This document shows, piece by piece, positions 1 through 41,210 of a stretch of DNA of 64,000 bases. The stretch's first letter is position 1. Each line of letters begins with the position of its first letter. A program made the position numbers and the translations under genes. The stretch lies in the NCBI GenBank assembly GCA_035764505.1, contig DASTZC010000281.1, forward strand, positions 326 to 64,325, in the 5' to 3' direction. This DNA is from Candidatus Polarisedimenticolia bacterium (GTDB lineage: Bacteria; Acidobacteriota; Polarisedimenticolia; Gp22-AA2; AA152). A model generated the notes under the pieces. That model saw nothing but the letters and a program-made list of their open reading frames with translations. It ran no database searches and had not been told where the DNA came from.

Positions 1-299
1 TGCGTACTTCCGGTATTCTCGTTCTGGTGGGCGCGGTGCTGTGGATGGTCATCTCCGAGATGGTCCTCGGTGAGGGACGCGGCTCCCAGGTGCGCTTCCT
101 GCTCGGCGCCGGAGTCCTCCTGCTGGCGTCCAGCTTCGCCGTTTCGATGTTTACGCGGGTCAGTAGCAAGATGGCCGGAAAGCGCTGTCCGCGGTGCGGC
201 AAGCCGGTGCAGCAGGGGCACATCTACTGTGCCGACCACCTGAAAGAAGCGGTGAACCAGTTCCGCGACGCCCAGCGGAAGAAAGGCGATCTGGGTTGA
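1..299 (+). CDS. Membrane protein with C-terminal CxxC...C..H zinc-ribbon-like tail. Probably 5'-partial, since the frame stays open to the window edge.
   Basis: ORF track 27..299 has a GTG start but no in-frame stop upstream to position 1. It shows hydrophobic segments followed by CPRCGKP...HIYCADH. Its stop TGA 297-299 overlaps the miaA TTG start. Confidence 0.3.
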   Translation, partial: RTSGILVLVGAVLWMVISEMVLGEGRGSQVRFLLGAGVLLLASSFAVSMFTRVSSKMAGKRCPRCGKPVQQGHIYCADHLKEAVNQFRDAQRKKGDLG

Positions 300-1258
300 G
301 CTCCGGCGCGCCGCCGGAGCGGCCGATCGCCGTCGTTGTCATGGGTCCCACCGCTTCCGGGAAGAGCGAGATCGCGACGGCGCTCGCACGCCGTCTCGGG
401 GGCTGGATTCTCAGCGTCGATTCGATGGCGGTCTATCGCGGGCTGGACATCGGCACGTCGAAGCCGCCCGCGGAGGTCCGCCGGGAGATCCCGCACCGCG
501 GGCTGGATCTGGCCGAGCCGGGAGAAGATTACTCGGTCGGAGATTTCGTGCGCGCCGCGGATGCCGCTCTGGAGGAGATGCGCGCCGCCGGAGTGCTGCC
601 GATCCTGGTGGGCGGGAGCGGCCTTTACCTGCGAGGGATCCTGAAGGGGGTGTCGGAGCTGCCGCGCCGCGACGCGGTGGTGCGGCGGCGGCTGCGGGAA
701 CTGGAGGAGGCCGAGGGGACGGAGGCGCTGCACCGGCTGCTGCAGCGGCAGGACCCGGCTTCAGCACGCCGCATCGCCCCGACCGACCGCCAGAGGGTGG
801 CGCGCGCGCTGGAGCTGGCGGCCTCGGGCGTCACGGATGTCGTCGGCAAGCCGCGCGGCGAATGGCTGGGCCCCGATCGATTCCCCAGCGTCAAGATCGG
901 GCTGCGGCGCGGGCGCGAGGATCTGGCGAGCCGGATCCGGGAGCGGGCGGAAGGGTTTCTCGGGGCGGGAATGCTGGAGGAGACGCGCCGTCTGCTGGCT
1001 CGACCCGGTGCGCCGGGAAACGCCCTGAAGGCGCTCGGCTACCGCGAGCTGGCGGCGCACCTGCGCGGGGAGTGCGACCTGCCGGCGGCCCGTGAGGCGA
1101 TGGTTCGGGCGACCCTGCAGTACGCCAAGCGCCAGATGACCTGGTTCCGCAAGGAGCAGGACGTGCGCTGGTTCGACCTGGAGGGCCCGGCCTCCGCGGC
1201 GGCGCAGCGCATCGGCGATTACGTGGCCGAGCGCATCGGAGATACGAGCCGGGGTTAG
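296..1258 (+). CDS. miaA: tRNA dimethylallyltransferase (MiaA)
   Basis: P-loop GPTASGKS is followed by DSMAVYRGLDIGTSKP, which matches MiaA. The in-frame TTG at 296 gives a short N-terminus before the P-loop; the upstream part of ORF 194..1258 is likely not translated. Confidence 0.85.
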   Translation: MSSGAPPERPIAVVVMGPTASGKSEIATALARRLGGWILSVDSMAVYRGLDIGTSKPPAEVRREIPHRGLDLAEPGEDYSVGDFVRAADAALEEMRAAGVLPILVGGSGLYLRGILKGVSELPRRDAVVRRRLRELEEAEGTEALHRLLQRQDPASARRIAPTDRQRVARALELAASGVTDVVGKPRGEWLGPDRFPSVKIGLRRGREDLASRIRERAEGFLGAGMLEETRRLLARPGAPGNALKALGYRELAAHLRGECDLPAAREAMVRATLQYAKRQMTWFRKEQDVRWFDLEGPASAAAQRIGDYVAERIGDTSRG

Positions 1259-1287
1259 GGCGCCCGGTCGGGCGGGAAGGAGATTCC

Positions 1288-1608
1288 ATGGACCGAGAAG
1301 ACTCGCTGAACATCCAGAACGACTTTTTCAATCAGGCCCGCAAGGAGAAATCGCGCGTCCTGGTGTTTCTCAACAGCGGCAGGAAGATCACCGGGCGCAT
1401 CAAGAGCTTCGACAAGTTCACCGTAATCCTGGAGAGCTCCCAGGGGGAGCAGATGATCTTCAAGCACGCCATCGCCACGGTGAGCAGCAGCAAAACGTTC
1501 GGAAACTTCATCAAGTTCGATCCCGCCTCCGGGCGGCCCAAGGAAGGTCCGCGGGACGCGCCGGCACCGGAAGGGGGCGCGTCGGACGAAGGCCCGCTTC
1601 CCGAGTAG
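1288..1608 (+). CDS. hfq: RNA chaperone Hfq with an extended Gly/Pro-rich C-terminal tail
   Basis: Sm1/Sm2 motifs (VLVFLNSGRKITGRIKSFDKFTVIL...FKHAIATV) are present, and the gene sits directly after miaA in the classic miaA-hfq arrangement. Confidence 0.9.
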   Translation: MDREDSLNIQNDFFNQARKEKSRVLVFLNSGRKITGRIKSFDKFTVILESSQGEQMIFKHAIATVSSSKTFGNFIKFDPASGRPKEGPRDAPAPEGGASDEGPLPE

Positions 1609-1629
1609 GCCTCAGCGTCCGGAGGTCCC

Positions 1630-2217
1630 TTGGGATTCACCGCTGCGAACGTCGTCACCATCGGCCGGATGATTCTGGTCCCCGCCTTCATCATCCTGGT
1701 GGTGTCCAACCAGCCGGGCTGGGCCTTCGGGGTCTTCGCCGCGGCGGGCATCAGCGACGCGCTGGACGGCTTCGTGGCCCGGCGCTTCGGGCGGAGCGCG
1801 CTGGGGGCCTTCCTGGATCCGCTGGCCGACAAGCTCCTGATCACGGCCGCCCTGGTGGTTCTGTCGCTTCCCGACCATCCGGCCAGCTTTCCCGAGTTCA
1901 CCCTGCAGAACCGCTTCCCGATACTCCTGACGATCCTGACGATCAGCCGGGACGTCCTGATCGTTCTGATCGCGCTCGGCATCCATCTCGCCACCGGGCT
2001 CACTCGCTTCCCGCCGACGGTGTACGGCAAGATCACCACGGCGGTACAGGTCGCCACCGTGTCGGTCATCCTGCTCTACAACACCCTCGGGGTGCGCTCC
2101 GAGGTGGTCGTGCCCGGCATGATCCTGCTGACCCTGGGGTGCACGCTGTTCTCGGGGCTGCATTACGTGCCGCATGCGGCGCGGCTGGCAGCCACCGCCT
2201 CGGCTTCCGAGCGCTAG
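1630..2217 (+). CDS. pgsA: CDP-alcohol phosphatidyltransferase (CDP-diacylglycerol-glycerol-3-phosphate 3-phosphatidyltransferase-like)
   Basis: The CDP-OH phosphotransferase signature D-G-x2-AR...G...D-x3-D (ISDALDGFVARRFGRSALGAFLDPLADK) is present, with multiple TM segments and a TTG start. Confidence 0.8.
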   Translation: MGFTAANVVTIGRMILVPAFIILVVSNQPGWAFGVFAAAGISDALDGFVARRFGRSALGAFLDPLADKLLITAALVVLSLPDHPASFPEFTLQNRFPILLTILTISRDVLIVLIALGIHLATGLTRFPPTVYGKITTAVQVATVSVILLYNTLGVRSEVVVPGMILLTLGCTLFSGLHYVPHAARLAATASASER

Positions 2218-2241
2218 CGACACGCCGCTGCAGCGCTGCGA

Positions 2242-3876
2242 TCAGGAGCTCCAGCTCAGCTCGGCCTTGATGTTGATGTTGCGGCGGGGATCGGGAAAGA
2301 GCGCCTCATAGGTGCCGGCCTGCTGGGAGGAGAGGAAAGGAGGAGAGAGCGGCGCCTCGGAAGTGGCGACGACCTCACCCGAAGCATCGGTGAGCGTGAT
2401 CCTGACCTTGATGTCGGCAGCCGGCCCCATCCCGGCGTTGTAGACCGAGCCCTTCACCTTCAGCCTGCCGTCGAGCGTGATTTCGTGGCTGTTCTCCACG
2501 AATTGCAGGTTGGCGCGCGCAATCTCGCGCAGCCGCTCGAGGCGTGGCGCCATCTCGATGGCGCGCGGGTGGCTCTGTCCTTGGGGTGAGTAGACCTCGG
2601 CGCTGGTGGAAAGGATCTTCGTGCCGCTGCCGCCGGTCTCGGCTTCCTCCCGCGGGAGGGGGGAAGCCGCGCCAGACGTGGCCTTCAGGATGGAGGCTTC
2701 CAGCGGCGGCGCGTCGGGTGCCAAACGCGTCTCGCCGTGCGATTGCCGCAGGAAACCCCACAGGGCGATCACCCCAAGAGCGACGATCGGCAGAAGAATC
2801 CAGACCCCCGACCAGGAGCCGGCCCCGGGTGGCATCGCCGCCTCGGGCCTGGCCGGGCGCGCCGGGGGCGTCGGGAGGCCGATGGGCGCGAGCAGCCGGT
2901 CGAGCTCGCGGATCAGCGTATCGTAGTCCTTCGGCCGATCTTCCGGGCGCTTGGCCAGCATCCTTTGGGTCAGCGTGACCAGAGGAACGGGGAGATCGGG
3001 ACTGAACTGCCGCGGCGAGCGGAGCGGCTCGCGCACATGCTTCAGGATGATCGACACGGGAGTGGGGCCGTCGAAGGGGGGACGCCCGGTGACCAGCTCG
3101 TACAGCGTGGCCCCCAGCGAGTAGATGTCGGAGCGCAAATCGGCGGGAGCGCCGGAAGCCTGCTCGGGGGCCAGGTAGTTCGGCGATCCGAGGACCTCTC
3201 CGGTCAGCGTCAGCCCGGAGTCGGCCACGACCATCTTGGCCAGGCCGAAGTCGGTAACCTTGACGACCCCCTCGCGCGTCACCACCAGGTTGCTCGGCTT
3301 GATGTCACGATGAATGATGCCGCGGGCCGCGGCCGCTTTCAGGCCGACCGCCGCCTGGCGGATGAGATCGGACGCCCGCGCCGGGGCGAGCTTCCCTTCT
3401 TCCTTGAGGAGGGCGTCCAGCGGCCGCCCTTCGAGATACTCCATCGCGAAGAAAGGGCGCCCTTCGGCTTCACCGATGTCGTAGATCTGCGTCACATTGG
3501 GATGCGAGAGGGCGGCGACCGCCCGCGCCTCGCGCAGGAAGCGCTCGCAGAACCCCGGCTCCTTGGCCAGCTCCGGCTTGAGGGTCTTCACCGCCACGGC
3601 GCGGTTCAGCCGAACGTCCCAGCCTTGATAGACGATGCCCATTCCGCCGGCGCCGATCAGGCCGCGGATCTCGTAAGGCCCCAGAGTGGCCGGGGCCGCC
3701 GGAAGAGGAGCCGGCTCCGGGAGAGCCGCGCCGCGCGGGGAGTCGATGCGCTGCGTCGCATCGGTCGTGCCGGCGAGCAGCGGAAACTCGCGCCCGCAGG
3801 AGGCGCAGGTTGCCGCACTCCGGGAGGTCGGAAGCTCCTGGGTGCTGCGGCAGTAGGGGCAGCGGATGAGGGCCAT
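2242..3876 (-). CDS. Ser/Thr protein kinase with N-terminal zinc ribbon, Pro-rich linker, one TM segment and an extracytoplasmic C-terminal domain
   Basis: It has CPYCR...CASCG at the N-terminus. Hanks kinase motifs are present: GAGGMGIVY, VAVK, HRDIKPSNL, DFGLAK and APE. Confidence 0.85.
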   Translation of the reverse strand: MALIRCPYCRSTQELPTSRSAATCASCGREFPLLAGTTDATQRIDSPRGAALPEPAPLPAAPATLGPYEIRGLIGAGGMGIVYQGWDVRLNRAVAVKTLKPELAKEPGFCERFLREARAVAALSHPNVTQIYDIGEAEGRPFFAMEYLEGRPLDALLKEEGKLAPARASDLIRQAAVGLKAAAARGIIHRDIKPSNLVVTREGVVKVTDFGLAKMVVADSGLTLTGEVLGSPNYLAPEQASGAPADLRSDIYSLGATLYELVTGRPPFDGPTPVSIILKHVREPLRSPRQFSPDLPVPLVTLTQRMLAKRPEDRPKDYDTLIRELDRLLAPIGLPTPPARPARPEAAMPPGAGSWSGVWILLPIVALGVIALWGFLRQSHGETRLAPDAPPLEASILKATSGAASPLPREEAETGGSGTKILSTSAEVYSPQGQSHPRAIEMAPRLERLREIARANLQFVENSHEITLDGRLKVKGSVYNAGMGPAADIKVRITLTDASGEVVATSEAPLSPPFLSSQQAGTYEALFPDPRRNINIKAELSWSS

Positions 3877-3987
3877 CCCACCTCCGTTACGACTTCGTAA
3901 TCACGGGCGCACGGACCCCGGGGCCGGAGCGCCGGGCCTGGATGGAATCTAGGCGTCGTCGAGGGGAAGTCAAACCGGAACAGGAGG

Positions 3988-5481
3988 TCAGCCGCCGAAG
4001 ATCCCCTTCAGGATCCCCTTCTTGGATTCGGGGTGCAGCGCCTGGAGAGCGGTCTCGTTGGAGGGATCCCAGCCCAGCGCTTTCTGCAGGAACTCGTCGC
4101 CTCGCGCGGTCTGGCCCAGCTTGCGGTAGAGCAGGCCGAGCAGGGCGTAATTCTCGGCGCAGGTGGGGTTCAGCTCGATGGCCTTGATGAAGTTCTGTTC
4201 CGCTTCCCGGCGCAGCCGCGGATTGCGACTCTGCGTGATGGCCAGGTAGCGGCGGTACTCCTCGCGCGCGGGGTCTTGCTCGACCGCATGCGCGAAGCAC
4301 GACAAGGCCCGGCTCATCTCGCTGCGCTCCAGGTGCGCCTTGCCGTGCAGGAAGTTCTGGCGCGCCAGATCGCTCGAGGAAGTCTCGGGACCTGTCTTGA
4401 CGGCCACGGGCTGCAGGACCTGGTCGTATTCCTGGCGGCTCTCGGGCTTGGACAGCGTTGCGTAGGCCTCGGTGATGGCGGCGAACAGCTTCTCGGCCCG
4501 ATGCTTGGTCTCCTCTTCCGCGAACTTGTCGGGGTGCAGGCGCTTCGCCAGAGAATAATAGGCGTGCCGGATCTCGGATTCGGAGGCTCCGGATTGTATC
4601 CCGAGGATCTGATAGAGATTCTGCCCCGTCAGTGCGGCGAAACGCTCCAGTACCTCCTCCACCGGCCCCGCGGGTCGCGTGGCTTTGGCGGGTGACGGAC
4701 GCTGGGCAGGTCGCACGCGCACCGGAGCATCGGCGGCGACCGGGCGGGTCGGACCGGGCACGCCGGGCTCGCTTTCGGCGCCGTCCAGGCTGAGCAGTCC
4801 CGAGAGGATCAAGGCGCACAGCGCCCGTTCCGTCTCCTCGCTTCCGAGGGGACTCATGAGCGCGATCTCGCGCACCGTCAGGGTTCCATCGGCGCGCGAC
4901 ACGAGGAACCCCTCGGCGGGCGACAGCGGAACCTGATCTAGCGGCAGCGGGGGAGCGGTGTTCAGCCGGACGCGCGAGTCGCCCTCCCCCAGGGCGGACT
5001 TGAGACGATTCAAGTCGGTCGCCTGCCGCGCCAGGTCGAGGATGGCGATCCCGAGGCTGACGCCGGCGTCGTCGGGGTCGGAGAAAGGAAGCTCCCCTTC
5101 CTGGTACTCGTAGGCGGCGTCTTCCCAGCGCGAGGCAGACAGGAGGACTCTCTGGATCATCTCCCGCACCATCGCCTTGTGCTCGTCCGCGCTCAGGAAC
5201 CCGAGGCGCACCAGGGCGGACCCCAGCAGCTCGCTGGACTGCTTGGCGGCGGTGGCGCGGCGCATCTGGTCGGGATTGAAGCGCCCTTTCTGCTTGAGGT
5301 GCTCGCTGAGGCTCTCCGCCATGAGGTTCGAGGCGGCGTAGCGGATCGTCCGTCCCTTGTCGATGAACAGCTGCCTCACGGTCGATCCACGCGAGATCTT
5401 CAGGGCGCCGGAGCGCCCGAGGCGCAGGATCCGCCCGAGCGCCAGGACCAGGCTCTGCTCCGCGAGCTTGCCGCCGGCCAC
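3988..5481 (-). CDS. DUF4388 (PATAN-like) domain protein with central J-domain and C-terminal TPR repeats
   Basis: The N-terminus resembles that of the 7024..8979 protein (LKISRGSTVRQLFIDKG...). The J-domain YQILGI...HPDK is present, and the C-terminal region is TPR-like. Confidence 0.7.
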   Translation of the reverse strand: MAGGKLAEQSLVLALGRILRLGRSGALKISRGSTVRQLFIDKGRTIRYAASNLMAESLSEHLKQKGRFNPDQMRRATAAKQSSELLGSALVRLGFLSADEHKAMVREMIQRVLLSASRWEDAAYEYQEGELPFSDPDDAGVSLGIAILDLARQATDLNRLKSALGEGDSRVRLNTAPPLPLDQVPLSPAEGFLVSRADGTLTVREIALMSPLGSEETERALCALILSGLLSLDGAESEPGVPGPTRPVAADAPVRVRPAQRPSPAKATRPAGPVEEVLERFAALTGQNLYQILGIQSGASESEIRHAYYSLAKRLHPDKFAEEETKHRAEKLFAAITEAYATLSKPESRQEYDQVLQPVAVKTGPETSSSDLARQNFLHGKAHLERSEMSRALSCFAHAVEQDPAREEYRRYLAITQSRNPRLRREAEQNFIKAIELNPTCAENYALLGLLYRKLGQTARGDEFLQKALGWDPSNETALQALHPESKKGILKGIFGG

Positions 5482-5482
5482 C

Positions 5483-6976
5483 TCAGTGGCTCTCCGCGAA
5501 CTGCTGGACCAGGCGATCCATCCATCCCTGCTGCAGGGTGGCGAAGCTCTCGCGGGTCGCTGCGGCCAGCGCCTCCTCGTCCGGCTCTCCCTGCTTCATC
5601 CGATCCAACGTCTCGAGGATCACCTCGAAAGGATAGCGGTCGACGAGGTAGCGGGTGAAGGAGAGCGCCGACGGATAGCTGAAGTTGTCGTACCAGGATT
5701 TCCCCTGGGTCGCCGCCAGGTCGCGCGCCAGGGTGCGCTCCTCGCCGGCGGAGATCGCCTTTCCTTCGCTGATCTGGGCCAGTCCCTCCTGCAGCCAGCG
5801 AGGGGCATTGCCGCCGCTCTTGCCCGCCACGAAGGCGTGCGTCAGCTCGTGAACCAACACGGCCCGCAGCGGCGGGGACAGGCTCTTCACGCCGCCGAGG
5901 GGAATGCGGATCTTGCCGTCGAACAGTCCCGCGACGTTCGCCGGCTCCAGCGTCACTTCGTGGAACTGCCGGGACGGATAGAAGATGGCGACCACGGGCG
6001 CGGAGGGGGCGAACTGATAGCGGCTCGAGAGATCGGAATAATCCTCCTCGAGGGCGTCGCGCAAGGAGGAAGCCAGCCCCTCGGACACCGGACCGGATCC
6101 GTCGTAGCGGAACGTGAAATGGGGCGATTCCTTGCGTGCGTACTCGCCGCCGACGGAGAACTCGCGGCGCGCCTTCTCCAGCCGGGCCGCGACGCGCGGA
6201 TCGTCGAGCAGCGACAGGGAGAGCTCCCATTCCTCGATCGCCTCGCGCAGGCTTTCCTGCTCGTAGTGGACCTCGCCGAGCAGGTAGTGCAGCGACGGGT
6301 CCCTGGGAAAGGCCACCAGGCCTTCCTCGATCTGGGCCCGGGCGTACTGGTCCTTGCCCGCTCGCAAGTAGGCGGCCGACAGCCCGATGAGCGCCGGCAG
6401 GCAGCGCGAATCGTAGGTCAGGGCTTCGCCGAACCGTCCCTGCGCCGTCGCCAGGTCGTTACGATCGGCCGCCTCGCGTCCCAGGAGCGTCAGGACCAGC
6501 GCCGCCTGGCGGGAAGCCTGCTCGCGATCGGCGGAGGTGGAGCCGGCGGCGCGCTTCAGCTTTTCGGCGAGCTTCTCCAGATCGGCGGGCGACATCTCCT
6601 CCAGGTCGTCCTCATCGAGCGTCTCCACCTTGGGTGCGGCAGGGGGTCTGGCGTTGCCGTGCGTGCGCGCCGGCGGGATGGGCGGAGTCGCCGCGCGTGG
6701 CGACGGGGGCGGCACGGGCGCCGGGGAGGCCGGCGTGGCCGGCGCGGGGCTCGAGCTCTTGGCGGCGCTCGAAGCCGGAGCGGGGGTTGCCTCCACGGTC
6801 TTCTCGACGCGCTCCAGGAGCGACTTCGGGACGGTCACGCTGCCGCCGGCGATCTCGAAGATCAGGTTGTCGCCGCGGATTTCCCAGGACTCGACCTTCA
6901 GGCTGCGTCCATCTTTGAGGTGCAGGATGTCGGCCCATGCCGCGGCGGGAAACAGGAGGAGGCAGGCGGAAAGCAA
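5483..6976 (-). CDS. Secreted TPR-repeat protein with HExxH (MA-type metallopeptidase-like) motif. The start is uncertain.
   Basis: It has a signal-like LLLSACLLLFPAAAWA, TPR-like repeats and VLVHELTHAF. The ATG-initiated ORF runs to 7168 and would overlap the upstream gene by 144 nt. An in-frame TTG at 6976 is the nearest non-overlapping start. Confidence 0.5.
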   Translation of the reverse strand: MLSACLLLFPAAAWADILHLKDGRSLKVESWEIRGDNLIFEIAGGSVTVPKSLLERVEKTVEATPAPASSAAKSSSPAPATPASPAPVPPPSPRAATPPIPPARTHGNARPPAAPKVETLDEDDLEEMSPADLEKLAEKLKRAAGSTSADREQASRQAALVLTLLGREAADRNDLATAQGRFGEALTYDSRCLPALIGLSAAYLRAGKDQYARAQIEEGLVAFPRDPSLHYLLGEVHYEQESLREAIEEWELSLSLLDDPRVAARLEKARREFSVGGEYARKESPHFTFRYDGSGPVSEGLASSLRDALEEDYSDLSSRYQFAPSAPVVAIFYPSRQFHEVTLEPANVAGLFDGKIRIPLGGVKSLSPPLRAVLVHELTHAFVAGKSGGNAPRWLQEGLAQISEGKAISAGEERTLARDLAATQGKSWYDNFSYPSALSFTRYLVDRYPFEVILETLDRMKQGEPDEEALAAATRESFATLQQGWMDRLVQQFAESH

Positions 6977-7023
6977 CAGATTTCGCGCGCACCCCGGTCC
7001 GCCCTGTGGCGCGGCGGGCGGCG

Positions 7024-8979
7024 TCAATTGCCCTCCGTCGCGGTGATCCGGCGCAGCGCGATGACCACGGGATGGATGCCGCCTTCCGCCAGGACCGGGG
7101 GAATGGCTGCCGCGGCGCGCTCGGCCTGGTCGATGGAGGGGTAGAAGCCGAAGCAGAGGCGGAAACACGACCGTCCCTGCAGCAGAAACGGAGTCACGAA
7201 GAACGGATCGTCGGGGTGCGTGCCGCGTGCCGCCTTGCGCAGCGACTCCTCCTGGCAGGCGATGGCAATCTGCAGGGTGAATGATTCGGCGTGGGGGCGG
7301 AGCGCCTGCGAGAAGGAGCGCGCCGCCGCCGCATGCTCGCCGGCATCCAGCTGTGCCCGGGCCTTGGCCCAGGCAGCGGATGTCACGGCACCGGCGCGCG
7401 GCGCCTCGACGCCGGGTGAGGATGCAGGAGACGCCGCCGGCACGGGTGGCGAAGCCGCCGAAGAGGCTGGGTGAGGCGCGGTCGTTTCGACGGGCGTGGC
7501 GGGGGAAGTCTCGACGGGAGCGCTTTCGGGCGTGCCGGCACCCGGCTCAGAGGTCTCGGCGGAGGGCGCCGCATCGGTGGCGCCCGAAGGTGGAGTCTGT
7601 GCCTGGGCCGTGGCTTCCTGCGGAGTCCCGGAGGGCGCCGAGGAGACATCCTCCGGGCTCGCCTCGGGAGCGGCGGTCTCGCTCGGCGGCGCCGTTTCGC
7701 TCACACCCGCGGTATCGGAGGCGCGGGCGGGAGCGCGGAGGAACACGAACCAGTAGGAAATCAGCGCCAGTAGGACGACGCCGCTCAGGATCGACAGAAC
7801 GGTCCAGGGCCGGGAAGGCTCGCTGCGCGGCAGGTGCGCGGTCCGCAGGATGGGCACCTCTTCGCCGATCGGCTCGAGGGGGAAGCTTGCCGCTGCCGGG
7901 TGTGGAGCCTCCGGGGCCGTTTCCTCTTCCGCAGAGCTCGCCGAAGCAGCGCCCTGCTCGTCCTGAGCCGAAGAAGCGGACATGGAGAACGCGCTTTCGG
8001 CAGGCATGTCGCGAATCGAGGATGCGGCCGGGTGTGAAGTCAGCGGCGGCGGCAAAGGATCCCTCCTGGACGGCTCAGGGGGAGCCACGACATCACTCAT
8101 CGGCGCTTCAGCGTCTTCGGGGTCATCGCGTATCGAGACGACGCGGATTGGCTCGGCCCCGGAAGAAGCTTCGGACGGGTACGGCTCCGGAGACGGCCTT
8201 GCGGCGGACAGCATCGCCTCGGCGTCCTCCGAAACCGCAACGGCTGCCGCTTCCGGCGTCTCTTCCACCGGAGGGTGCTCGGGGGTCAGCCGTCCCAGCA
8301 ACGACAAGCCGTAGACAATCTTGCTGGCGGAGAAATCGTCCAGTCCCGCCGCCTGTCCGAAATCCCGGATCGCCATGGGATGCGGGAAGTGATCGATCAG
8401 CTCCTTCCATCGCCGCGGCAGGGGCGCGGTGTCGGCGCCGTTCCCGCCCGTCGCAGGGACATAGACGGTGTCCGGGGCTCCCACCTCGAGCAGCACGAAG
8501 CTCCGATCCGTCAAATCTCGGATCAGATCGAGCAGCAGCTCGCGAGTGTCGACGTTCAGCGAGGTGATCTCGCGCGGGAAGAAGCCCTCCTGGGTTTCGT
8601 AGCCGGCATCGGTGAGCGGCAGCACGCTGCCGACGATCTGCCGCAGCTGCTGGCGCGCGCCGGCGAACAGCTCGCCGCTGGTCAGGAAGCCCATCTGGAC
8701 CAGGACGCGGGCCAGCGAGACGCCCGGCCGCGTCGATTTGCGCGCCAGGTCCATTTGCTCCGGCTTCAACTTTCCGGCACGGATCAGGATCGGCGCGAGA
8801 TGGTCCGCCTGGTCGTTGGAGGATGCCATGGCGATCTCACCGCCCTGGAAATAGAGAAGCTTGAGTAGCGCCCCGCGGGACAGGCGCAGGGTTCCGTCGA
8901 ATCGATTGCGGTGCAGGCGGGCGAGCAGCCGCGGGCAGGAGATCTCGGAGAGAGTGCCCGACTTCTTCACCGTTTCCAT
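7024..8979 (-). CDS. DUF4388 (PATAN-like) domain protein with long Pro/Ala/Ser/Glu-rich linker, one TM segment and C-terminal periplasmic domain
   Basis: The N-terminus CPRLLARLHRNRFDGTLRLSRGALLKLLYFQGGEI is paralogous to the 3988..5481 N-terminus. The protein shows low-complexity acidic/Pro repeats followed by a hydrophobic helix. Confidence 0.6.
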   Translation of the reverse strand: METVKKSGTLSEISCPRLLARLHRNRFDGTLRLSRGALLKLLYFQGGEIAMASSNDQADHLAPILIRAGKLKPEQMDLARKSTRPGVSLARVLVQMGFLTSGELFAGARQQLRQIVGSVLPLTDAGYETQEGFFPREITSLNVDTRELLLDLIRDLTDRSFVLLEVGAPDTVYVPATGGNGADTAPLPRRWKELIDHFPHPMAIRDFGQAAGLDDFSASKIVYGLSLLGRLTPEHPPVEETPEAAAVAVSEDAEAMLSAARPSPEPYPSEASSGAEPIRVVSIRDDPEDAEAPMSDVVAPPEPSRRDPLPPPLTSHPAASSIRDMPAESAFSMSASSAQDEQGAASASSAEEETAPEAPHPAAASFPLEPIGEEVPILRTAHLPRSEPSRPWTVLSILSGVVLLALISYWFVFLRAPARASDTAGVSETAPPSETAAPEASPEDVSSAPSGTPQEATAQAQTPPSGATDAAPSAETSEPGAGTPESAPVETSPATPVETTAPHPASSAASPPVPAASPASSPGVEAPRAGAVTSAAWAKARAQLDAGEHAAAARSFSQALRPHAESFTLQIAIACQEESLRKAARGTHPDDPFFVTPFLLQGRSCFRLCFGFYPSIDQAERAAAAIPPVLAEGGIHPVVIALRRITATEGN

Positions 8980-9198
8980 CGATCGCAGGTCCTCGGGATG
9001 GAACGCGACCGCCGCGGCAGGAAAGGGGGCTGGTCGTTCACTACCCGGGAAGTATAGTGTCGCCTCCAGGGGGTGTCAACCGTTCCGCGGCGACGGCCCG
9101 GTTCTGATAAGTGATGAGGACACAGTAAGTTCTAACAGTTTCGTCATGGTAGAATCCGGAGCGAACGAGACGACCTGCGAGCGCTCGAAAGGACCAGG

Positions 9199-10773
9199 AT
9201 GAATCGGCACGAGGAATTCGAGGCCGTGATCGTAGGGAGCGGAATCGCCGGGCTGCGGGCCGCCGTAGAGCTGGCGGGTGCCGGCAGGAAGACGCTCCTG
9301 GTGACCAAGGACGATCCGACGCAGAGCAACACCGGCTATGCCCAGGGCGGCATCGCCGCGGCCTGGGCGGAGGACGACCGGGCGGAGCTGCACTACGAGG
9401 ACACTCTGCGCGCCGGCGACGGGCTGTGCGACGAGCAGGCGGTCCGGGTCATGGTGGAGGAGGGACCGCCGCGCATCCGCGAGTTGATCGGCTGGGGGAC
9501 CCGCTTCGATCGCGACCACGAGAAGCTGGCGCTGGCCCGCGAGGCGGCCCACAGCCGCCGGCGCGTGATCCATGCGGGAGGCGATTCCACGGGGGCGGAG
9601 ATCGTCCGTTCCCTGCTCGCGCGCGCGCGCGGCCTGCAGGCGCTGACGGTTCGCGCCTCCACCTTCAGCGTCGATCTGGTCCTGCAGGACGGGCGCTGCG
9701 CCGGAATCCTCCTGCAGGACGAGACCAGCGGCGACGTCTACGCGGCGCTCGCCGGCTGCGTCCTTCTGGCCACGGGGGGTGCGGGGCGCCTGTACCGCGA
9801 CACCACCAACCCGCCGCAGGCCACCGGGGATGGGGTGGCCATGGGCTATCGGGCCGGCGCCGTCGTCTGCGACCTCGAGTTCGTGCAATTCCATCCAACG
9901 GTCCTGATCGCGCCGGGGGCTCCGCGCTTCCTCCTGTCGGAGGCGCTGCGCGGGGAAGGAGCCGTGCTGCGCAACGGCGCAGGGGAGCGCTTCATGCGGC
10001 TTTATCATCCCGACGCCGAGCTGGCGCCACGCGACGTGGTGGCGCGCGGCATCGTCGAGGAGATGGCGCGAAGCGGCGAGGAGTGCGTCTATCTCGATCT
10101 CACCGGCCGCGACCCGCGGTTCGTGGAGGAGCGCTTTCCGAGCATTACCCGGACCTGCCTCGCCTTCGGCTTCGATCTGGCGCGCGACCGTGTCCCCGTG
10201 CGTCCCGCGGCGCACTACATGATGGGAGGATTGCAGACCGATCTGGACGGCCGGACCAGCGTGGCGGGGCTGTACGCCGCCGGGGAGGTGGCCTGCACCG
10301 GCGTGCACGGCGCCAACCGCCTGGCGAGCAACTCGCTGCTGGAAGGGGTCGTCTTCGGCGCGCGCGCGGCGGAGGCGATGCTGCAGGAGGCCGCGGCCCC
10401 GGCTCCTCGGGCAGCGGCGAAGCTGGCGACACCTCGATCCATTCCCGTCGAGGAGGCTGAGAGCCGGCGGGAGTCGGTTGCCGATCTCATGAGCGGCAAC
10501 GCCGGCGTGCGGCGCCGGGGCGCCGATCTCGAGGCGGCCCTCGCCCGGTTGCGCGAGGGCTCGGTGCGACTCGCGTCGGTCCCCCTCCGGCGCGCCGGAG
10601 TGGAGGCCCGTAACCTGCTGCTGGTCGGAGAGCTGGTGGTGGCCTCGGCGCGCGAGCGGGAGGAAAGCCGCGGCGCGCATTTTCGCATCGATTTTCCGGA
10701 GAAGCGGTCCGCGTGGCGACGGCGCCTCGCCCGGAGCGCGCCGCCGGCGGAGGACCTGCCGCGGCTCGATTAG
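9199..10773 (+). CDS. nadB: L-aspartate oxidase
   Basis: FAD-binding VIVGSGIAGL and YAQGGIAA are present, along with the fumarate reductase/succinate dehydrogenase flavoprotein fold and a C-terminal domain typical of NadB. Confidence 0.9.
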   Translation: MNRHEEFEAVIVGSGIAGLRAAVELAGAGRKTLLVTKDDPTQSNTGYAQGGIAAAWAEDDRAELHYEDTLRAGDGLCDEQAVRVMVEEGPPRIRELIGWGTRFDRDHEKLALAREAAHSRRRVIHAGGDSTGAEIVRSLLARARGLQALTVRASTFSVDLVLQDGRCAGILLQDETSGDVYAALAGCVLLATGGAGRLYRDTTNPPQATGDGVAMGYRAGAVVCDLEFVQFHPTVLIAPGAPRFLLSEALRGEGAVLRNGAGERFMRLYHPDAELAPRDVVARGIVEEMARSGEECVYLDLTGRDPRFVEERFPSITRTCLAFGFDLARDRVPVRPAAHYMMGGLQTDLDGRTSVAGLYAAGEVACTGVHGANRLASNSLLEGVVFGARAAEAMLQEAAAPAPRAAAKLATPRSIPVEEAESRRESVADLMSGNAGVRRRGADLEAALARLREGSVRLASVPLRRAGVEARNLLLVGELVVASAREREESRGAHFRIDFPEKRSAWRRRLARSAPPAEDLPRLD

Positions 10774-10906
10774 ATGTCGCGCATCCGAAATCCCGTTACC
10801 TTCGGCCGCCGTCCATCAGAGCGACAGCGCGATGCTGTCGGTCCCGGCTTGTGGCGTTGTGTCTCGCTTGCGTAGCCACATGGGTACGAAACGCCGGCGG
10901 GTGGCT

Positions 10907-11614
10907 TCAGCGAATCAGATCGAAGGAGCGGGCCCAGCGGGTGCGCGTGAACAGGTGGGTGATCTTCGACCAGATCGCCAGCACCCGATCCACCAGCCCG
11001 GTCTTCAGGTAGGCGTCGCGCTCTTCCTCGTAGGACCAGAAGATCACGAAGGCGCGTCCCTTGATGTAGTCGCGCGGGACGAACCCCCAGGCGCGCGAGT
11101 CGCGGCTGTTGTCGCGGTTGTCCCCCATCGCGAAGAAGCTGTCGGGTGGGATCTTGGTGGGCGCGTAGTCATCGGCGTCGATGTTGGTGGATTGCGGGTA
11201 GATGTGCTGGACGTAGGGCTCTTTCTGCAGGACACCGTTGAGGAAGAGCTGGCGATGGCGGATCTCGACCACGTCGCCCGGAATGCCGATGACCCGCTTG
11301 ATGTAGTCCTTCTCAGGCTCCTCGGGATATTTGAAGACGATGATGTCGCCGCGGCGGACGTCGCGGATCGGTAGCAGCTTGCGCTCCCAGGAGAAGCTGG
11401 TGGGAGCATAGACGTGCTTGTTGACCATGATGTAGTCGCCGATCAGGAGCGTCGGGATCATGGAGCCGGTCGGGATCTTCGACTGCTGGAAGACGAAGGT
11501 GCGGGCGAACAGCACGAAGATGACGCAGGTGACGATGGTCTCGAGATAGTCCCGCAGGATCCCCTTGGGCGGGGAGGATTCGGTGGCGGATGAGGCGGCG
11601 GAGGGCTCGCTCAT
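10907..11614 (-). CDS. lepB: Signal peptidase I
   Basis: It has the S26 motifs SGSMIPTL and GDNRDNSxDSR, with an N-terminal TM segment. Confidence 0.9.
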   Translation of the reverse strand: MSEPSAASSATESSPPKGILRDYLETIVTCVIFVLFARTFVFQQSKIPTGSMIPTLLIGDYIMVNKHVYAPTSFSWERKLLPIRDVRRGDIIVFKYPEEPEKDYIKRVIGIPGDVVEIRHRQLFLNGVLQKEPYVQHIYPQSTNIDADDYAPTKIPPDSFFAMGDNRDNSRDSRAWGFVPRDYIKGRAFVIFWSYEEERDAYLKTGLVDRVLAIWSKITHLFTRTRWARSFDLIR

Positions 11615-12138
11615 CGCAGGAACGCGGCGACCTGCTCGACCGCCTGCTCCGGCGTGAGGGCCGTCGTGGTGATGTCCAGTTGTTGCGCTTCGAGCATCTG
11701 GTGGCTTTTGAGCGAATCCAGGAAGCGGTCCCAGAAGTCCCCCAGCAGGACGATCCGCGTACGGGGAAGAAGCCCGCTTCGGTTCAGCGCCCAGAGAAAC
11801 GAGAGCTCCGCGAGAGTTCCGGATTTGCCGGACAGGATTATATAGGCGTCGGAAAGCTCTATCAAACGGCGGGTGCGCAGGAACAGGTCCGGCTCGTCGA
11901 GCGCTTCCGAGAGGTACGAGTTCGCCGGTCCGCGCGCGAAGGCCGCGGTGGTCACGCCGACCGAGGTCCCCCCGCCTTCACGGGCGCCGCGGCTCGCCGC
12001 TTCCATCACGCCGCCGTAGCCGCCGTTGACGACGCGCAATCCGGCGCGCGCCAGCAGCCATCCGCACCGCCGCGCCTGCTCGTAGAGGGCCTCTCCTTCC
12101 CGTGGCTCGGAGCTGCCGAACACGGCCACCGACTTCAT
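11611..12138 (-). CDS. LOG family protein (TIGR00730 Rossmann-fold nucleotide-binding/cytokinin riboside 5'-monophosphate phosphoribohydrolase-like)
   Basis: GGYGGVMEA...SGKSGTLAEL motifs are present. The stop overlaps the lepB start by 4 nt. Confidence 0.8.
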   Translation of the reverse strand: MKSVAVFGSSEPREGEALYEQARRCGWLLARAGLRVVNGGYGGVMEAASRGAREGGGTSVGVTTAAFARGPANSYLSEALDEPDLFLRTRRLIELSDAYIILSGKSGTLAELSFLWALNRSGLLPRTRIVLLGDFWDRFLDSLKSHQMLEAQQLDITTTALTPEQAVEQVAAFLR

Positions 12139-31486: not shown

Positions 31487-32985
31487 GCATCGGCAGGGTG
31501 GTCCGCAACATCTCAGCCGGCTATGTCGGGGCGGCGGTCAACGGCGCGACGCTGCTGATCCTGACGCCCTTGGTGATCCGCAGCCTCGGCACCCTGGAGT
31601 ATGGCCTCTGGGTGACCGCGACGGCGCTGGGGAGCTACTTCGGCTCCCTCAACGCCGGCAGCGGCGCCGCCGGGGTCAGGTCGGTGGCTTCCGGCGCGGC
31701 GCGGGAGGGCTTCGACCAGGCCAGCCGGGAGCTGGGGTCCATCTTCCGCGTCTACTGCGTCCTGGGAATCCTGGCATGCGTCGGATTGATCGGTCTCGGC
31801 TTCATCACGCTCGACCGGTTCGGCGTTCCCCCGGAGCTGAAGGTCTCCATGCGCTGGCTGATCGCGCTCATCGGGATCAACTTTCTGATCTCCTTTCCCT
31901 TCGGCCTGACCCGCAGTGCGCTGGCCGGGATGCAGTATTTCGGGCTGCTCAACACCGTCGAGGTTGCCACAGCGCTTTTCCGCCTGGCGGCCACCGCGGC
32001 GCTGCTGGCGGCAGGGATGGGGGTCGTCTCGCTCGGGGTGGTGCAGCTGATCGCGTCGGTCGCCGGGCACCTCGCCCGCTGGCGCGCGATCCGCCGCCTG
32101 GCGCCGGAGATTCATCTGACCGGTGGCCCGACCTACCGCAAGCTGGTGCCCCAGGCCTTTCTCTTCTCCGCCCTTTCCTTCGGGTACGAGAGCCTGAGGA
32201 CGCTTTTCGAAAACTCCGATCTGCTGATCCTCGGCCTGCTCGCGGGGCCGCAGGCGGTGGCCCTGTTCGCCGTGGCGGCCACGGTCGCCTCCTTCGTTTC
32301 CAAGGGGCTGCAGCCCGTCTCCAACGTCCTGTTCCCGCTCGCCTCGCGCGCCGATTCCCAGGGAACGGCGCAGGCGCGCCTGCTCGAGGTGGCCACGCGG
32401 GTGAATCTGGCGCTGGCCCTGCCGGTGGTGACGCTCCTGATGGTGGACGGTGGCGCGCTCCTGCGGTTGTGGGCCGGTGAGTCTTTTGCCTCCAGCCTCC
32501 CGATCCTGCGCGCCCTCGCCCTGGCGGCGCTGGTCACGGCGGCCTCGCTGGCACCCACGACGCTGCTGTTCGGAGCCGGACGCGTGGGAGTCCTGCTGGG
32601 GGCGGAATCGTGGCGCTACGCCCTCAACCTCGCGCTTGTGGTGGTGGGATACCGCCTCTATGACTTGCCGGGCGCGGCGGTGGGCACGCTCGCGGCGACG
32701 CTCGGAATCGACGCCTGGCTGGTGCTGCGGCGCTGCTGTCCCTGGGGCGGCGTCGATCCGAAAAGCTTCCTGATCCATTCGGTGGGAGCCCCGCTCCTGA
32801 CCGGGCTCCCGGTGGTCCTCCTGATGGCCGCCTGGAAATCGTGGGCTCCTGATCCTTCTCTGCCTCTCCTGCTGGCCAGGGCCGCGGCGTGCCTCGGGGC
32901 TTTCGCCCTGATGTACGGCGTGAGCGGCACCTTCCGCGAGGAGCGGCGTCTCGTCGTGCGCGCATGGGCGGAGGTGTTCCGATGA
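31483..32985 (+). CDS. wzx: Wzx-type polysaccharide flippase (MOP/PST family)
   Basis: It has about 12-14 TM helices and a Polysacc_synt-like profile. Confidence 0.8.
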   Translation: MSIGRVVRNISAGYVGAAVNGATLLILTPLVIRSLGTLEYGLWVTATALGSYFGSLNAGSGAAGVRSVASGAAREGFDQASRELGSIFRVYCVLGILACVGLIGLGFITLDRFGVPPELKVSMRWLIALIGINFLISFPFGLTRSALAGMQYFGLLNTVEVATALFRLAATAALLAAGMGVVSLGVVQLIASVAGHLARWRAIRRLAPEIHLTGGPTYRKLVPQAFLFSALSFGYESLRTLFENSDLLILGLLAGPQAVALFAVAATVASFVSKGLQPVSNVLFPLASRADSQGTAQARLLEVATRVNLALALPVVTLLMVDGGALLRLWAGESFASSLPILRALALAALVTAASLAPTTLLFGAGRVGVLLGAESWRYALNLALVVVGYRLYDLPGAAVGTLAATLGIDAWLVLRRCCPWGGVDPKSFLIHSVGAPLLTGLPVVLLMAAWKSWAPDPSLPLLLARAAACLGAFALMYGVSGTFREERRLVVRAWAEVFR

Positions 32986-40292: not shown

Positions 40293-41210
40293 ATGCGCTC
40301 CATATCGGTCCTCATCTGCACCCGCGATCGCAGCGCCATGCTGGAAGAGTGCCTGCGTTCGGTGCTGGCCTGCGCGCCGGGGGCCACCGAGATCGTGGTG
40401 GTGGACCAGAGCGCCGATGAGACGACCCGGCTGGCGGTCTGCCGACAGCAGGGAGGCAAGGTGCCGGTGCGCTACCTGCGCAGCCGGGGCAAGGGGCTGT
40501 CGCACGCGAAGAACCAGGGAATTGCCGATTGCACCTCCGACATCGTCGCCTTCACCGACGATGACTGCCGGGTCGATGCGGGCTGGCTCGGAGCGATCAC
40601 CGGCCCGATTGCCGCCGGCACGGCGGGCGCCGTCGCCGGCCGGACCCTGCCGGAGCCCGGGAGCGACGGAGGCGAGGAGACCCGCTCGATGTACGCGCCG
40701 CCGCAGGCCCGCTCCTTTTCGGCCCGGACGCATCCCTGGCGGGTCGGCGGGGGAGGAAATTTCGCGGTGCTGCGCGAGGCGATGCGCCGCGTCGGACCGT
40801 TCGACGAGCGCTTCGGCCCCGGCGCCCCCCTCGAGAGCGCCGAGGATATGGACATGGTGCATCGCCTGCTGCGCGCCGGCTTCCGTATCGTCTACGTCCC
40901 CGAAGCGGTGGTGCAGCACCGCTCCTGGCGGGCTCCGGTGGAGAACCGCCGCCTGGCCCGCCGCTACGGCGTGGGCGCGGGCGGCTATTTCGCCAAGCAT
41001 TTCGTCGCGGGCGATTTGATCAGCGGATGGCGCTTCGTGCAGCGCGCCGGAGTGCGCAGCCTGTCGCTCGCTTCGGGAGCGCTGCGCGGCGACGGCCGGA
41101 AGATGGAAGAACAGCTCGAGTATTTGAAGGGCCTTTTCCAGGGGGGCGCGCGTTACTTCGCATGTATCTCCGCCGGAATGGCGGGACTCGAGAAAGGACG
41201 GGCCCGATGA
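40293..41210 (+). CDS. GT2 glycosyltransferase
   Basis: ISVLICTRDR...VVDQSADE...FTDDDCRV are present. Confidence 0.75.
   Translation: MRSISVLICTRDRSAMLEECLRSVLACAPGATEIVVVDQSADETTRLAVCRQQGGKVPVRYLRSRGKGLSHAKNQGIADCTSDIVAFTDDDCRVDAGWLGAITGPIAAGTAGAVAGRTLPEPGSDGGEETRSMYAPPQARSFSARTHPWRVGGGGNFAVLREAMRRVGPFDERFGPGAPLESAEDMDMVHRLLRAGFRIVYVPEAVVQHRSWRAPVENRRLARRYGVGAGGYFAKHFVAGDLISGWRFVQRAGVRSLSLASGALRGDGRKMEEQLEYLKGLFQGGARYFACISAGMAGLEKGRAR

Follow-up and report, generated by a model that had tools for sequence, protein, structure and literature searches.

SPOR-domain proteins, J-proteins that act at specific sites and Hanks kinases that sense the wall all have recognised parts in bacterial division and envelope biology. 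SPOR domains bind peptide-free (denuded) glycan strands, which are concentrated at the septum (DamX, DedD, FtsN, RlpA), and the SPOR domain of FtsN has a disulfide. J-domains that bear the HPD motif activate DnaK, ZipN carries a J-domain, and BepA of Escherichia coli is a periplasmic M48 zinc metalloprotease with tetratricopeptide repeats (TPR). Here we describe a minus-strand locus at positions 2242-8979 of a 64-kb stretch of DNA (64,000 nucleotides, nt; the window) from a metagenome-assembled genome (MAG) of a Candidatus Polarisedimenticolia bacterium, in which four genes encode a PATAN protein with a transmembrane (TM) segment and a predicted SPOR domain (P4), a predicted periplasmic TPR peptidase (P3), a PATAN protein with a J-domain and TPR (P2), and a Hanks kinase. 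Each part comes from a known family; their combination matches no described system, and no operon linking SPOR proteins, site-specific J-proteins and such kinases had been found before.

PATAN is a widespread bacterial domain that has been studied in two settings only, both cyanobacterial. Makarova et al. (2006), cited in PMC7380572, describe it in their title as an alpha/beta core with an alpha-helical insertion, and the title of PMC7380572 itself states that PatA interacts with the divisome in Anabaena. The PATAN-REC regulators of Synechocystis bind PilB1 and PilC (bioRxiv 10.1101/2021.06.11.447907). The PATAN partners known so far are membrane-associated machines.

P4 has the topology of DamX, DedD and FtsN of E. 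coli: its N-terminal part is cytoplasmic, it crosses the membrane once, and a long periplasmic linker of low complexity leads to the SPOR domain at the C-terminus. It differs from these in having a folded PATAN module of about 235 residues instead of a short or disordered tail, in the coupling of its gene to those of a peptidase and a J-protein, and in a similarity that is nil outside SPOR. P4 and P2 have in common with the PatA-type PATAN-REC regulators (Anabaena PatA; Synechocystis PixG, PixE, TaxP and LsiR) the PATAN domain PF14332 and the helical insert in it, but they lack a receiver domain, and so histidine-kinase control, their PATAN is fused to TM-SPOR or to J-TPR, and they come from a different phylum. 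In P4 and P2 the MshEN-like unit is inserted in another domain, whereas in MshE, PilF and PilB it is N-terminal to an ATPase.

Like DjlA (E. coli inner membrane), TopJ (Mycoplasma terminal organelle) and ZipN/Ftn2/ARC6 (cyanobacterial and plastid division), P2 has an HPD J-domain on a targeting module, an arrangement that, without the Zn-finger and C-terminal domains of DnaJ, implies local recruitment of DnaK. Targeting of P2 would be through PATAN and TPR and not through a TM anchor, and no sequence relation to these proteins was found beyond the J-domain, the NCBIfam scores all being far under their cutoffs. TPR and J-domain are also combined in DNAJC3 (p58IPK) and DNAJC7, and DNAJC3 (2y4t_A) is the closest solved protein to P2 with both regions; the order is reversed in DNAJC3 (TPR, then J), which is eukaryotic and has no PATAN, such that the likeness is architectural convergence at most. 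P3 resembles BepA as a periplasmic zincin with TPR, for which a role in envelope quality control or assembly is plausible by analogy, but it belongs to Peptidase_MA_2, with M9, M1 and M61 and not M48 as its nearest structural matches, has its TPR N-terminal to the peptidase, and carries an extra beta-rich N-domain. The fourth protein is bitopic with an extracytoplasmic sensor, as are the PASTA kinases PknB and StkP, although in place of PASTA repeats its ectodomain has one small domain that is probably a beta-sandwich.

A four-gene locus of uncultured Acidobacteriota

An earlier reading of the window, made from the sequence alone (the original prediction), proposed a module of four minus-strand genes, and all four open reading frames (ORFs) are present and fill 2242-8979 in the ORF listing. 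It had also held that the arrangement has no described function, and we found no description of it in the literature, NCBIfam or PADLOC. P2 and P4 are each 100% identical to NCBI proteins of the Candidatus Polarisedimenticolia bacterium MAG, where they are titled 'DnaJ domain-containing protein' and 'DUF4388 domain-containing protein', respectively. Polarisedimenticolia is a class of Acidobacteriota, the host is uncultured, and the GC content of the window is about 68%. On sequence evidence the locus is a conserved four-gene operon of uncultured Acidobacteriota that links a SPOR-anchored envelope protein with a site-specific J-protein module. Its most likely place of action is where the cell wall is being remodelled, for instance at the division septum. 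The four genes, in the order in which they would be transcribed, are:

7024..8979, minus strand: P4, 651 amino acids (aa); PATAN module, acidic linker, one TM segment, periplasmic linker, SPOR domain
5483..7027, minus strand: P3, 514 aa; signal peptide, small beta-rich N-domain, Pro/Ala linker, TPR, gluzincin peptidase
3988..5481, minus strand: P2, 497 aa, GTG start; PATAN module, Pro/Arg linker, J-domain, TPR
2242..3876, minus strand: bitopic Hanks Ser/Thr kinase, 544 aa; Pkinase (PF00069) at 1.5e-48, 165.9 bits

P4 as a predicted SPOR-anchored membrane protein

The original prediction correctly gave P4 a linker, a TM segment and an extracytoplasmic domain, and overlooked what that domain is. 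Profile comparison identifies it as a SPOR domain, and the parts of P4 can be placed as follows:

8275..8979, minus strand: PATAN module, residues 1-235; core, helical insert and C-terminal small helical (winged-helix-like) domain
7738..7806, minus strand: TM segment, aa 392-414, WTVLSILSGVVLLALISYWFVFL, read from the sequence
7045..7284, minus strand: periplasmic SPOR domain, aa ~566-645, from an ortholog profile against the DamX SPOR domain

The cytoplasmic linker between PATAN and the TM segment is 155 residues long, acidic and rich in Pro/Ala/Ser, with a net charge of -20. On the other side of the membrane lie a linker of about 120 residues rich in Pro/Ala/Ser/Thr, then a helical hairpin and, at the C-terminus, the SPOR domain. 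A C-terminal profile built from 21 P4 orthologs (A2) matches the structure of the DamX SPOR domain (2lfv) with an E value of 2.1e-7 over 88 positions, and 14 of the 21 orthologs match Pfam SPOR (PF05036) at E<1. The ortholog in locus L085 clears the Pfam cutoff (22.4 bits vs 21). Some P4 orthologs carry the JGI names DamX or DedD. Within the SPOR domain of the family Cys54 and Cys84 of A2 are invariant and a third Cys is mostly conserved (…IAC…, …GRxCYRxCWG…), a pattern that recalls the SPOR domain of FtsN and suggests a periplasmic disulfide.

To gauge the size of the family, P4 was run in a full HMMER pass over 1.84 billion cluster representatives, which returned 119 proteins with E<=1e-30 and, with the looser limit of E<=1e-10, 829. 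In 106 of 141 newly retrieved cluster representatives, PATAN is followed by a TM segment and a SPOR-type domain. The PATAN-TM-SPOR family is a large one, and no paper on it was found in the literature. The protein P0116 (L083:5731-7395) fuses PATAN to a rhomboid intramembrane protease and TPR, with a PATAN part 67% identical to that of P4, and is a further link between PATAN, TPR and a protease. In L093:1067-8025, a distant PATAN-TM-SPOR gene whose product is 26% identical to P4 lies directly 3' of glmU, glmS and a 522-aa TPR gene on the same strand. A crude gene finder based on GC content at third codon positions overlooked P4 owing to its Pro/Ala-rich linkers.

The PATAN modules of P4 and P2 and their helical insert

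The original prediction held that P4 and P2 have a related DUF4388/PATAN N-terminal domain, and this is borne out by Pfam (PF14332, cutoff 25), which P4 matches at 1.1e-13 (51.7 bits) and P2 at 7.6e-9 (36.1 bits). The two N-terminal regions also align directly with 32% identity over 166 aa and an E value of 3e-18 (BLASTP), well above chance, and the common domain is therefore real. The module of P2 and the inserts of both proteins are located at:

4777..5481, minus strand: P2 PATAN module, aa 1-235, paralogous to that of P4
8626..8808, minus strand: MshEN/T2SSE_N-like four-helix insert of the P4 PATAN, from profile and Foldseek
~5137-5316, minus strand: MshEN-like insert within the P2 PATAN module

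An AlphaFold2 model of P4 1-235 (pLDDT 90, pTM 0.85) has strands at 29-54, four helices at 61-118 and a strand at 126-131, that is, an alpha/beta core with a helical insertion. No whole-domain match to PATAN was found in the PDB, either by sequence profile or by Foldseek of the P4 model; an actin-like (ASKHA) fold was considered and discarded, with Foldseek probabilities of 0.06-0.18. For the insertion the outcome is different. A profile of 24 PATAN regions matches PilF (6f8l) at 1.8e-15 and MshE-N (5htl) at 3.3e-9, and also PilB (9g1w and 3jc8), and the match to MshEN/T2SSE_N falls at the position of the known alpha-helical insertion of PATAN. In Foldseek superpositions the modelled P4 insert fits MshE-N with bound cyclic di-GMP (c-di-GMP; 5htl_A) with probability 1.0 and a root-mean-square deviation of 1.5 A over 54 columns, and PilF GSPIIB at 1.4 A. 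By profile and model structure, the helical insertion of PATAN is homologous to the c-di-GMP-binding MshEN/T2SSE_N unit of PilB, PilF and MshE. A remark in the literature that some DUF4388 proteins are co-annotated with GspE_N is on record.

P2 as a predicted co-chaperone

The J-domain and TPR that the original prediction saw in P2 are both recovered by HMM scan:

4423..4620, minus strand: P2 J-domain with HPD, aa 288-353 (Pfam DnaJ)
4036..4350, minus strand: C-terminal TPR repeats of P2, aa ~378-482 (Pfam, profile)

The J-domain matches Pfam DnaJ (PF00226) at 8.7e-20 (71 bits, cutoff 27.8), and H316, P317 and D318 are invariant in 18 P2 homologs. P2 is nevertheless not a canonical DnaJ (TIGR02349) or CbpA, since only residues 289-365 match, at 60 bits vs a cutoff of 377, and P2 is without the further regions that define DnaJ or CbpA (Gly/Phe region, Zn-finger, C-terminal substrate-binding domains). 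The JGI name 'CbpA' given to relatives of P2 mirrors the J-domain alone. This composition implies that P2 is a cytoplasmic, DnaK-recruiting co-chaperone, as predicted from its domains.

P3 as a predicted periplasmic peptidase

P3 was proposed as a secreted TPR protein with a zincin motif, and the features found agree with this:

6158..6490, minus strand: TPR repeats, aa ~180-290 (Pfam, profile)
5486..6130, minus strand: Peptidase_MA_2 gluzincin catalytic domain (Pfam, AlphaFold2, Foldseek)
5837-5851, minus strand: HELTH, with WLQEGLAQ 18 residues downstream

Pfam finds TPR and Peptidase_MA_2 (PF13485) in P3, the latter at 29.5 bits with the whole protein and at 33.2 bits with the domain alone, vs a cutoff of 32.4. 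HExxH and the downstream Glu (WLxEGxAQ) are invariant in 22/22 orthologs, and the small beta-rich N-domain (ILHLKDG…) is conserved as well. An AlphaFold2 model of the peptidase part has a pLDDT of 91.4, and with it Foldseek finds the Vibrio M9 collagenases 7wss_A (E 1.2e-4) and 7esi_A (E 5.4e-4), both with TMq 0.61, along with M1 aminopeptidases and an M61 enzyme (catalytic-domain matches at probability 1.0). Because the active site is invariant and the modelled fold is that of a gluzincin, P3 should be an active zinc peptidase in the periplasm.

Operon organisation

The putative signals around the genes are:

9051..9079, minus strand: sigma70-like promoter candidate, TTGACA-17-TATACT, 11/12 matches, ~70 nt upstream of the P4 ATG
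3946..3973, minus strand: weak promoter-like site in the P2-kinase spacer, 9/12 matches, with a GGAGG ribosome-binding site before the kinase ATG

Three sigma70-like sites were found in the region, where shuffles give an expectation of 0.4 (consensus match only), and the site upstream of P4 is the sole strong one on the minus strand. The site scan placed no terminator-like sites between the four genes. The junctions consist of a 4-nt overlap between P4 and P3, a 1-nt gap between P3 and P2, and 111 nt between P2 and the kinase gene, which may have an extra promoter of its own.

The original prediction described the genes as abutting or overlapping. This is correct for 5481/5483, but not for 7024 vs 7168, the real P4/P3 overlap being 4 nt and not 144 nt: the TTG start of P3 at 7027 overlaps the TGA stop of P4 (TTGA). 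A start at 7168 corresponds to the longest ORF (5483-7168) and was rejected; the 47 codons that it adds overlap P4 and lie before the signal peptide, and the starts in public calls are at or below 7027. The frame is open up to 7168, and the signal peptide itself (…CARNLLLSACLLLFPAAAWA/D) falls after the P4 stop. An independent public gene call gives P3 514 aa, and a shorter product of 497 aa is called at NCBI. The 4-nt P4/P3 overlap recurs in L005, L006, L007 and L024 (loci are numbered L001 and so on), and L081 and L091 show it in their public gene calls. Gene calls also have 4-nt overlaps between P2 and the kinase gene in L084 and between P3 and P2 in L085. From this arrangement, P3 is predicted to be translationally coupled to P4. 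Tight packing and overlaps, together with the conserved order described below, indicate that the genes are functionally linked, and we consider operon linkage of all four highly probable. Half of the mass of the module would be periplasmic and half cytoplasmic, with two single-pass proteins connecting them.

Conservation of the module

Related loci were collected by a scan with the P2 alignment, using one genome per species, which gave 386 relatives; 80 loci were kept, and the proteins of the window were compared with them by tblastn. In the close clade (L001-L023) the identity of P2 is 36-71%. Wherever enough upstream sequence is available, P4-P3-P2 are in the same order (18/18 loci: 16 of the close clade plus L024 and L025), and the kinase gene is present in 23/23 close-clade loci, all of which have downstream sequence. 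The interval between the kinase gene and pgsA varies from ~25 nt to ~6 kb; the stretch beyond the kinase gene is a breakpoint, and the four genes stay together beside it. Gene order is kept down to about 30% protein identity.

More distant lineages keep parts of the locus. L024 and L025 have P4-P3-P2 without the kinase. In L085 a 221-aa TM-SPOR protein without PATAN is followed by P3 and P2, again with no kinase, and in L088/L089 a 699-aa PATAN-TM-SPOR protein is followed 5 nt later by a 311-aa Peptidase_MA_2 protein without TPR, with a further PATAN-TPR protein nearby and the kinase absent (L088). Since the sets kept in these lineages are P4-P3-P2, SPOR-P3-P2 or P4-P3, each of them lacking the kinase, the conserved core of the module consists of the SPOR-anchor/peptidase and peptidase/J-protein pairs, and the kinase is a clade-specific addition to this triad.

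P2-like PATAN-J-TPR proteins with 26-30% identity to P2 occur in Pyrinomonadaceae, Aminicenantes and Nitrospirae, and neither tblastn nor HMMs found P3, P4 or the kinase as neighbours of these distant genes. Among L026-L080, an HD_5/HDOD (HD-GYP-type) gene follows the P2-like gene in 36 loci and a divergent histidine kinase gene precedes it in 28. Examples of this context are:

L064:11511-12242
L045:214-1653

With these neighbours in place of the module genes, the distant loci were rejected as instances of the same system. Unrelated contexts were also found for two distant homologs of P3 (P0179 and P0175) and one of P4 (P0118).

Just upstream of miaA in some relatives, on the same strand, there are genes for a 401-aa PATAN-only protein and a 764-aa protein with SPOR and SpoIID, such that the wider region in those relatives holds three PATAN and two SPOR proteins:

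L002:15654-19218: PATAN-only and SPOR-SpoIID genes; also in L008, L012, L013 and L015, partial in L003 and L018

The window begins 193 nt before miaA, so the region of the SPOR-SpoIID and third PATAN genes lies off its left end. A small NYN_YacP nuclease-like gene adjoins PATAN-SPOR or P2 genes in otherwise different loci (L082:9886-10314, L085:8594-9037, L088:1900-2406).

The Hanks kinase

The membrane Hanks kinase of the original prediction is confirmed, and its features are:

3784-3867, minus strand: N-terminal Cys4 ribbon
2929-3675, minus strand: kinase domain (Pfam)
2749-2814, minus strand: single TM segment
2245-2514, minus strand: periplasmic domain, probably a beta-sandwich

The catalytic Lys, HRD, DFG and (A/S)PE are invariant in 18/18 orthologs. 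The ribbon that the original prediction described is indeed present here, but is found in only 4/18 orthologs, and it gives weak matches to many Zn-ribbon families, including Zn_ribbon_4 and Zn_ribbon_5, with E values of 0.02-0.07. The ectodomain is conserved (alignment A3) and is probably an Ig-like beta-sandwich; when all orthologs were scanned with Pfam and a profile was searched against the PDB, there were weak Ig-like hints at most, with matches to LacZ_4 and to DUF3426 (16.9-17.5 bits vs a cutoff of 27.7, in 4/18 orthologs). With these matches the kinase is no more than a candidate for the MJ0042-type zinc ribbon + DUF3426 architecture, which is defined by a CxxC...CxxC ribbon at the N-terminus and an above-threshold DUF3426 at the C-terminus. 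The PknB/Stk1 PASTA model NF033483 scores 337.5 bits vs a cutoff of 450 with a match confined to the kinase domain, and a Pfam scan found no PASTA repeats.

The original prediction had the kinase provide the input to the module. The comparison of loci lends this no support, the kinase being the least conserved member and missing from L024, L025, L085 and L088, where the other genes are kept. In a MAG of Planctomycetota (L086:4856-7314), a Hanks kinase gene and a TPR-Peptidase_MA_2 gene (product 30% identical to P3) overlap by 4 nt, a single example, which suggests a kinase-peptidase partnership outside Acidobacteriota.

A proposed role at the cell wall and alternatives

The claim of a dedicated module holds as far as functional linkage is concerned, on the strength of packing, one strong promoter-like site and conserved order. 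What changes is the biology: with a SPOR domain and a periplasmic half, the likely role moves from the generic proteostasis of the original prediction to the cell wall and septum. Two of the observations above fit such a role, namely the SPOR-SpoIID and third PATAN genes beyond miaA in relatives and the PATAN-TM-SPOR gene after glmU-glmS in L093. For PATAN itself, the interaction of PatA with the divisome in Anabaena is a precedent.

A mechanism can be put together by analogy with the known domains. The P4 SPOR domain would fix P4 to the denuded glycan of septal or otherwise remodelled peptidoglycan, and P4 would position P3 in the periplasm, or be processed by it, probably through contacts between the P3 TPR and the long linkers rich in Pro. 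In the cytoplasm, the PATAN of P4 would recruit its paralog in P2, giving the PATAN-scaffolded complex that the original prediction proposed and that we also infer, and the P2 J-domain would load DnaK onto a client held by the P2 TPR, with site-specific chaperone remodelling at the place of division or wall remodelling as the result. The kinase would be a modulator in the Polarisedimenticolia clade, sensing through its ectodomain and tuning the system by phosphorylating the Ser-rich linkers or P2. We put the probability of this full mechanism at about 0.35. If it is true, it provides a bacterium with a concrete means of recruiting the general chaperone DnaK, together with a periplasmic protease, to places that the condition of the cell wall marks out, and a first function for a family of at least 100 PATAN-TM-SPOR clusters; PATAN as the carrier of an MshEN-like unit is a further point of interest.

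Several observations weigh against this proposal. The SPOR copy of the window scores by itself 15.7-15.9 bits, under the Pfam cutoff of 21. There are neither division genes nor dnaK within the window. The SPOR anchor of L085 has no PATAN, and PATAN-PATAN pairing is therefore not universal. P2-like proteins of other Acidobacteriota occur in a different, signalling-type context. The genes nadB, lepB and LOG are also syntenic beside the module in L084, L085 and L091, so part of the conserved order may be inheritance and not selection. Finally, all of the mechanistic steps are drawn from established knowledge of the domains.

One alternative is trans-envelope signalling by regulated proteolysis, in which a periplasmic cue is read by the kinase ectodomain or the P3 TPR, P3 cleaves the periplasmic linker of P4, the cytoplasmic PATAN part is freed or destabilised, and P2 and DnaK handle the fragment or a partner. 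The invariant active site of P3 and its predicted translational coupling to P4 would suit such a scheme, as would the P4 periplasmic linker of ~120 Pro/Ala/Ser/Thr-rich residues, which seems protease-accessible, the PATAN-rhomboid-TPR fusion P0116, and the overlapping kinase/TPR-peptidase pair of the Planctomycetota MAG. The module, however, has no transcription factor and no sigma/anti-sigma element, no DNA-binding domain in its proteins scores above threshold, the SPOR domain is superfluous to the scheme, and the kinase is dispensable in several lineages. We consider this alternative unlikely, although worth keeping in mind.

Control of type IV pilus or motility polarity, with the PATAN modules binding PilB/PilC and the J-protein assembling or disassembling a polar machine (cf. 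TopJ of Mycoplasma), would draw on the binding of PilB1 and PilC by the Synechocystis PATAN regulators and on the homology of the PATAN insert to the MshEN N-domain of PilB, PilF and MshE. Myxococcus xanthus PATAN proteins are among the candidates listed with SopA in a study of a type IVa pilus regulator (bioRxiv 10.1101/2024.03.11.584430), and the P2 J-domain and TPR weakly match the TopJ and PilW models, respectively. These last matches, however, are generic J-domain and TPR similarity far under the cutoffs; pil, tad and gliding genes are absent from the 64-kb window and from the module flanks in all loci examined; and the SPOR domain and periplasmic peptidase are left unexplained. We regard this reading as quite doubtful.

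The insert also raises the idea that PATAN is a second, overlooked home of the MshEN nucleotide-binding unit, and that P4 and P2 are cyclic-dinucleotide-gated partners, with a ligand that controls PATAN-PATAN or PATAN-client association and thereby switches DnaK recruitment and periplasmic proteolysis at SPOR-marked peptidoglycan. The MshEN c-di-GMP receptor has two 24-residue motifs, [RKPN]hGxxhhxx[GAS]hhxxxxhxxxhxx[QNKRYWST], with a 5-residue spacer (Wang et al., PMC5013675), and the inserts were scored against this relaxed form of the motif. In the window the motif is degenerate, with 7/11 + 9/11 positions in P4, 6/11 + 8/11 in P2 and a spacer of 4 in both; the first Arg is absent and Gly is replaced by Ala or Ser. 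Neither insert carries the receptor motif in full, the fold does agree, and for nucleotide binding the motif predicts neither its presence nor its absence. NCBIfam NF053729 gives 17.9 bits vs a cutoff of 38, and the match of P2 to the NCBIfam 'c-di-GMP_motif, MshE-related' is sub-threshold (E 0.002). As leads there are the near-canonical motifs of distant PATAN proteins in L026 (9/11 + 10/11) and L088:7710-9512 (8/11 + 11/11), each with a spacer of 5, and the HD_5/HD-GYP-type gene beside the Pyrinomonadaceae P2-like genes. The idea is a very tentative one that we hold to be improbable; if true, it makes a direct link between a second messenger and a division-site chaperone.

That the four genes are unrelated neighbours, their order kept by collinearity of the whole region (LOG, lepB, nadB, module, pgsA, hfq, miaA) in a fairly narrow clade, would account for the synteny of nadB, lepB and LOG noted above and for pgsA-hfq-miaA lying on the other side in many loci. 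It sits poorly with the 4-nt start/stop overlaps at two or three junctions, the contiguity of the four genes despite insertions of up to 6 kb just after the kinase gene, the recurrence of P4-P3 and kinase-P3 pairs with wholly different flanks, including those in another phylum, and the presence of two paralogous PATAN modules in one operon, and we find it very improbable. An anti-phage defence built on a PD-T4-6-like Ser/Thr kinase deserves almost no credence, as the strong scores of the kinase on PADLOC PD-T4-6 and mad6 and on NCBIfam MADS6 are limited to the generic kinase domain (residues ~65-330), P4, P3 and P2 match no PADLOC model, and the locus, unlike defence islands, is fixed amid housekeeping genes across a class-level clade with no signs of mobile elements.

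Flanking genes and other features of the window

The genes that adjoin the module are:

194-1258, plus strand: miaA, left flank, convergent to the module
1288-1608, plus strand: hfq, left flank, convergent to the module
1630-2217, plus strand: CDP-alcohol phosphatidyltransferase gene (pgsA), left flank, convergent to the module
9199-10773, plus strand: L-aspartate-oxidase-like gene (nadB), right flank, divergent from the module

Beyond nadB to the right are lepB, a LOG-family gene, ccm genes and greA, and all of the flanks are housekeeping genes. The hfq product has 106 aa with a Pfam match to residues 9-69, leaving a C-terminal extension of ~35 residues past the Hfq core. An Rfam scan of window positions 1-12000 returned zero matches. 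Opposite-strand ORFs of 428-595 aa at 9076-10680 (minus), 5357-7144 (plus) and 7281-8567 (plus) were rejected as genes, being shadow ORFs of a high-GC genome; the translation of 9076-10680 is of low complexity and rich in Arg/Gly/Ala, and the real gene at that place is nadB on the plus strand.

Farther along the window, several large ORFs (32889-34736, 41027-42691 and 44235-46355) have no Pfam match. The stretch 36389-62005 resembles an exopolysaccharide cluster, with a GT2 glycosyltransferase, a sugar-1-phosphate transferase-nucleotidyltransferase fusion, a Wzz/GNVR tyrosine-kinase-type protein, two B12-binding radical SAM enzymes and a carbamoyltransferase.

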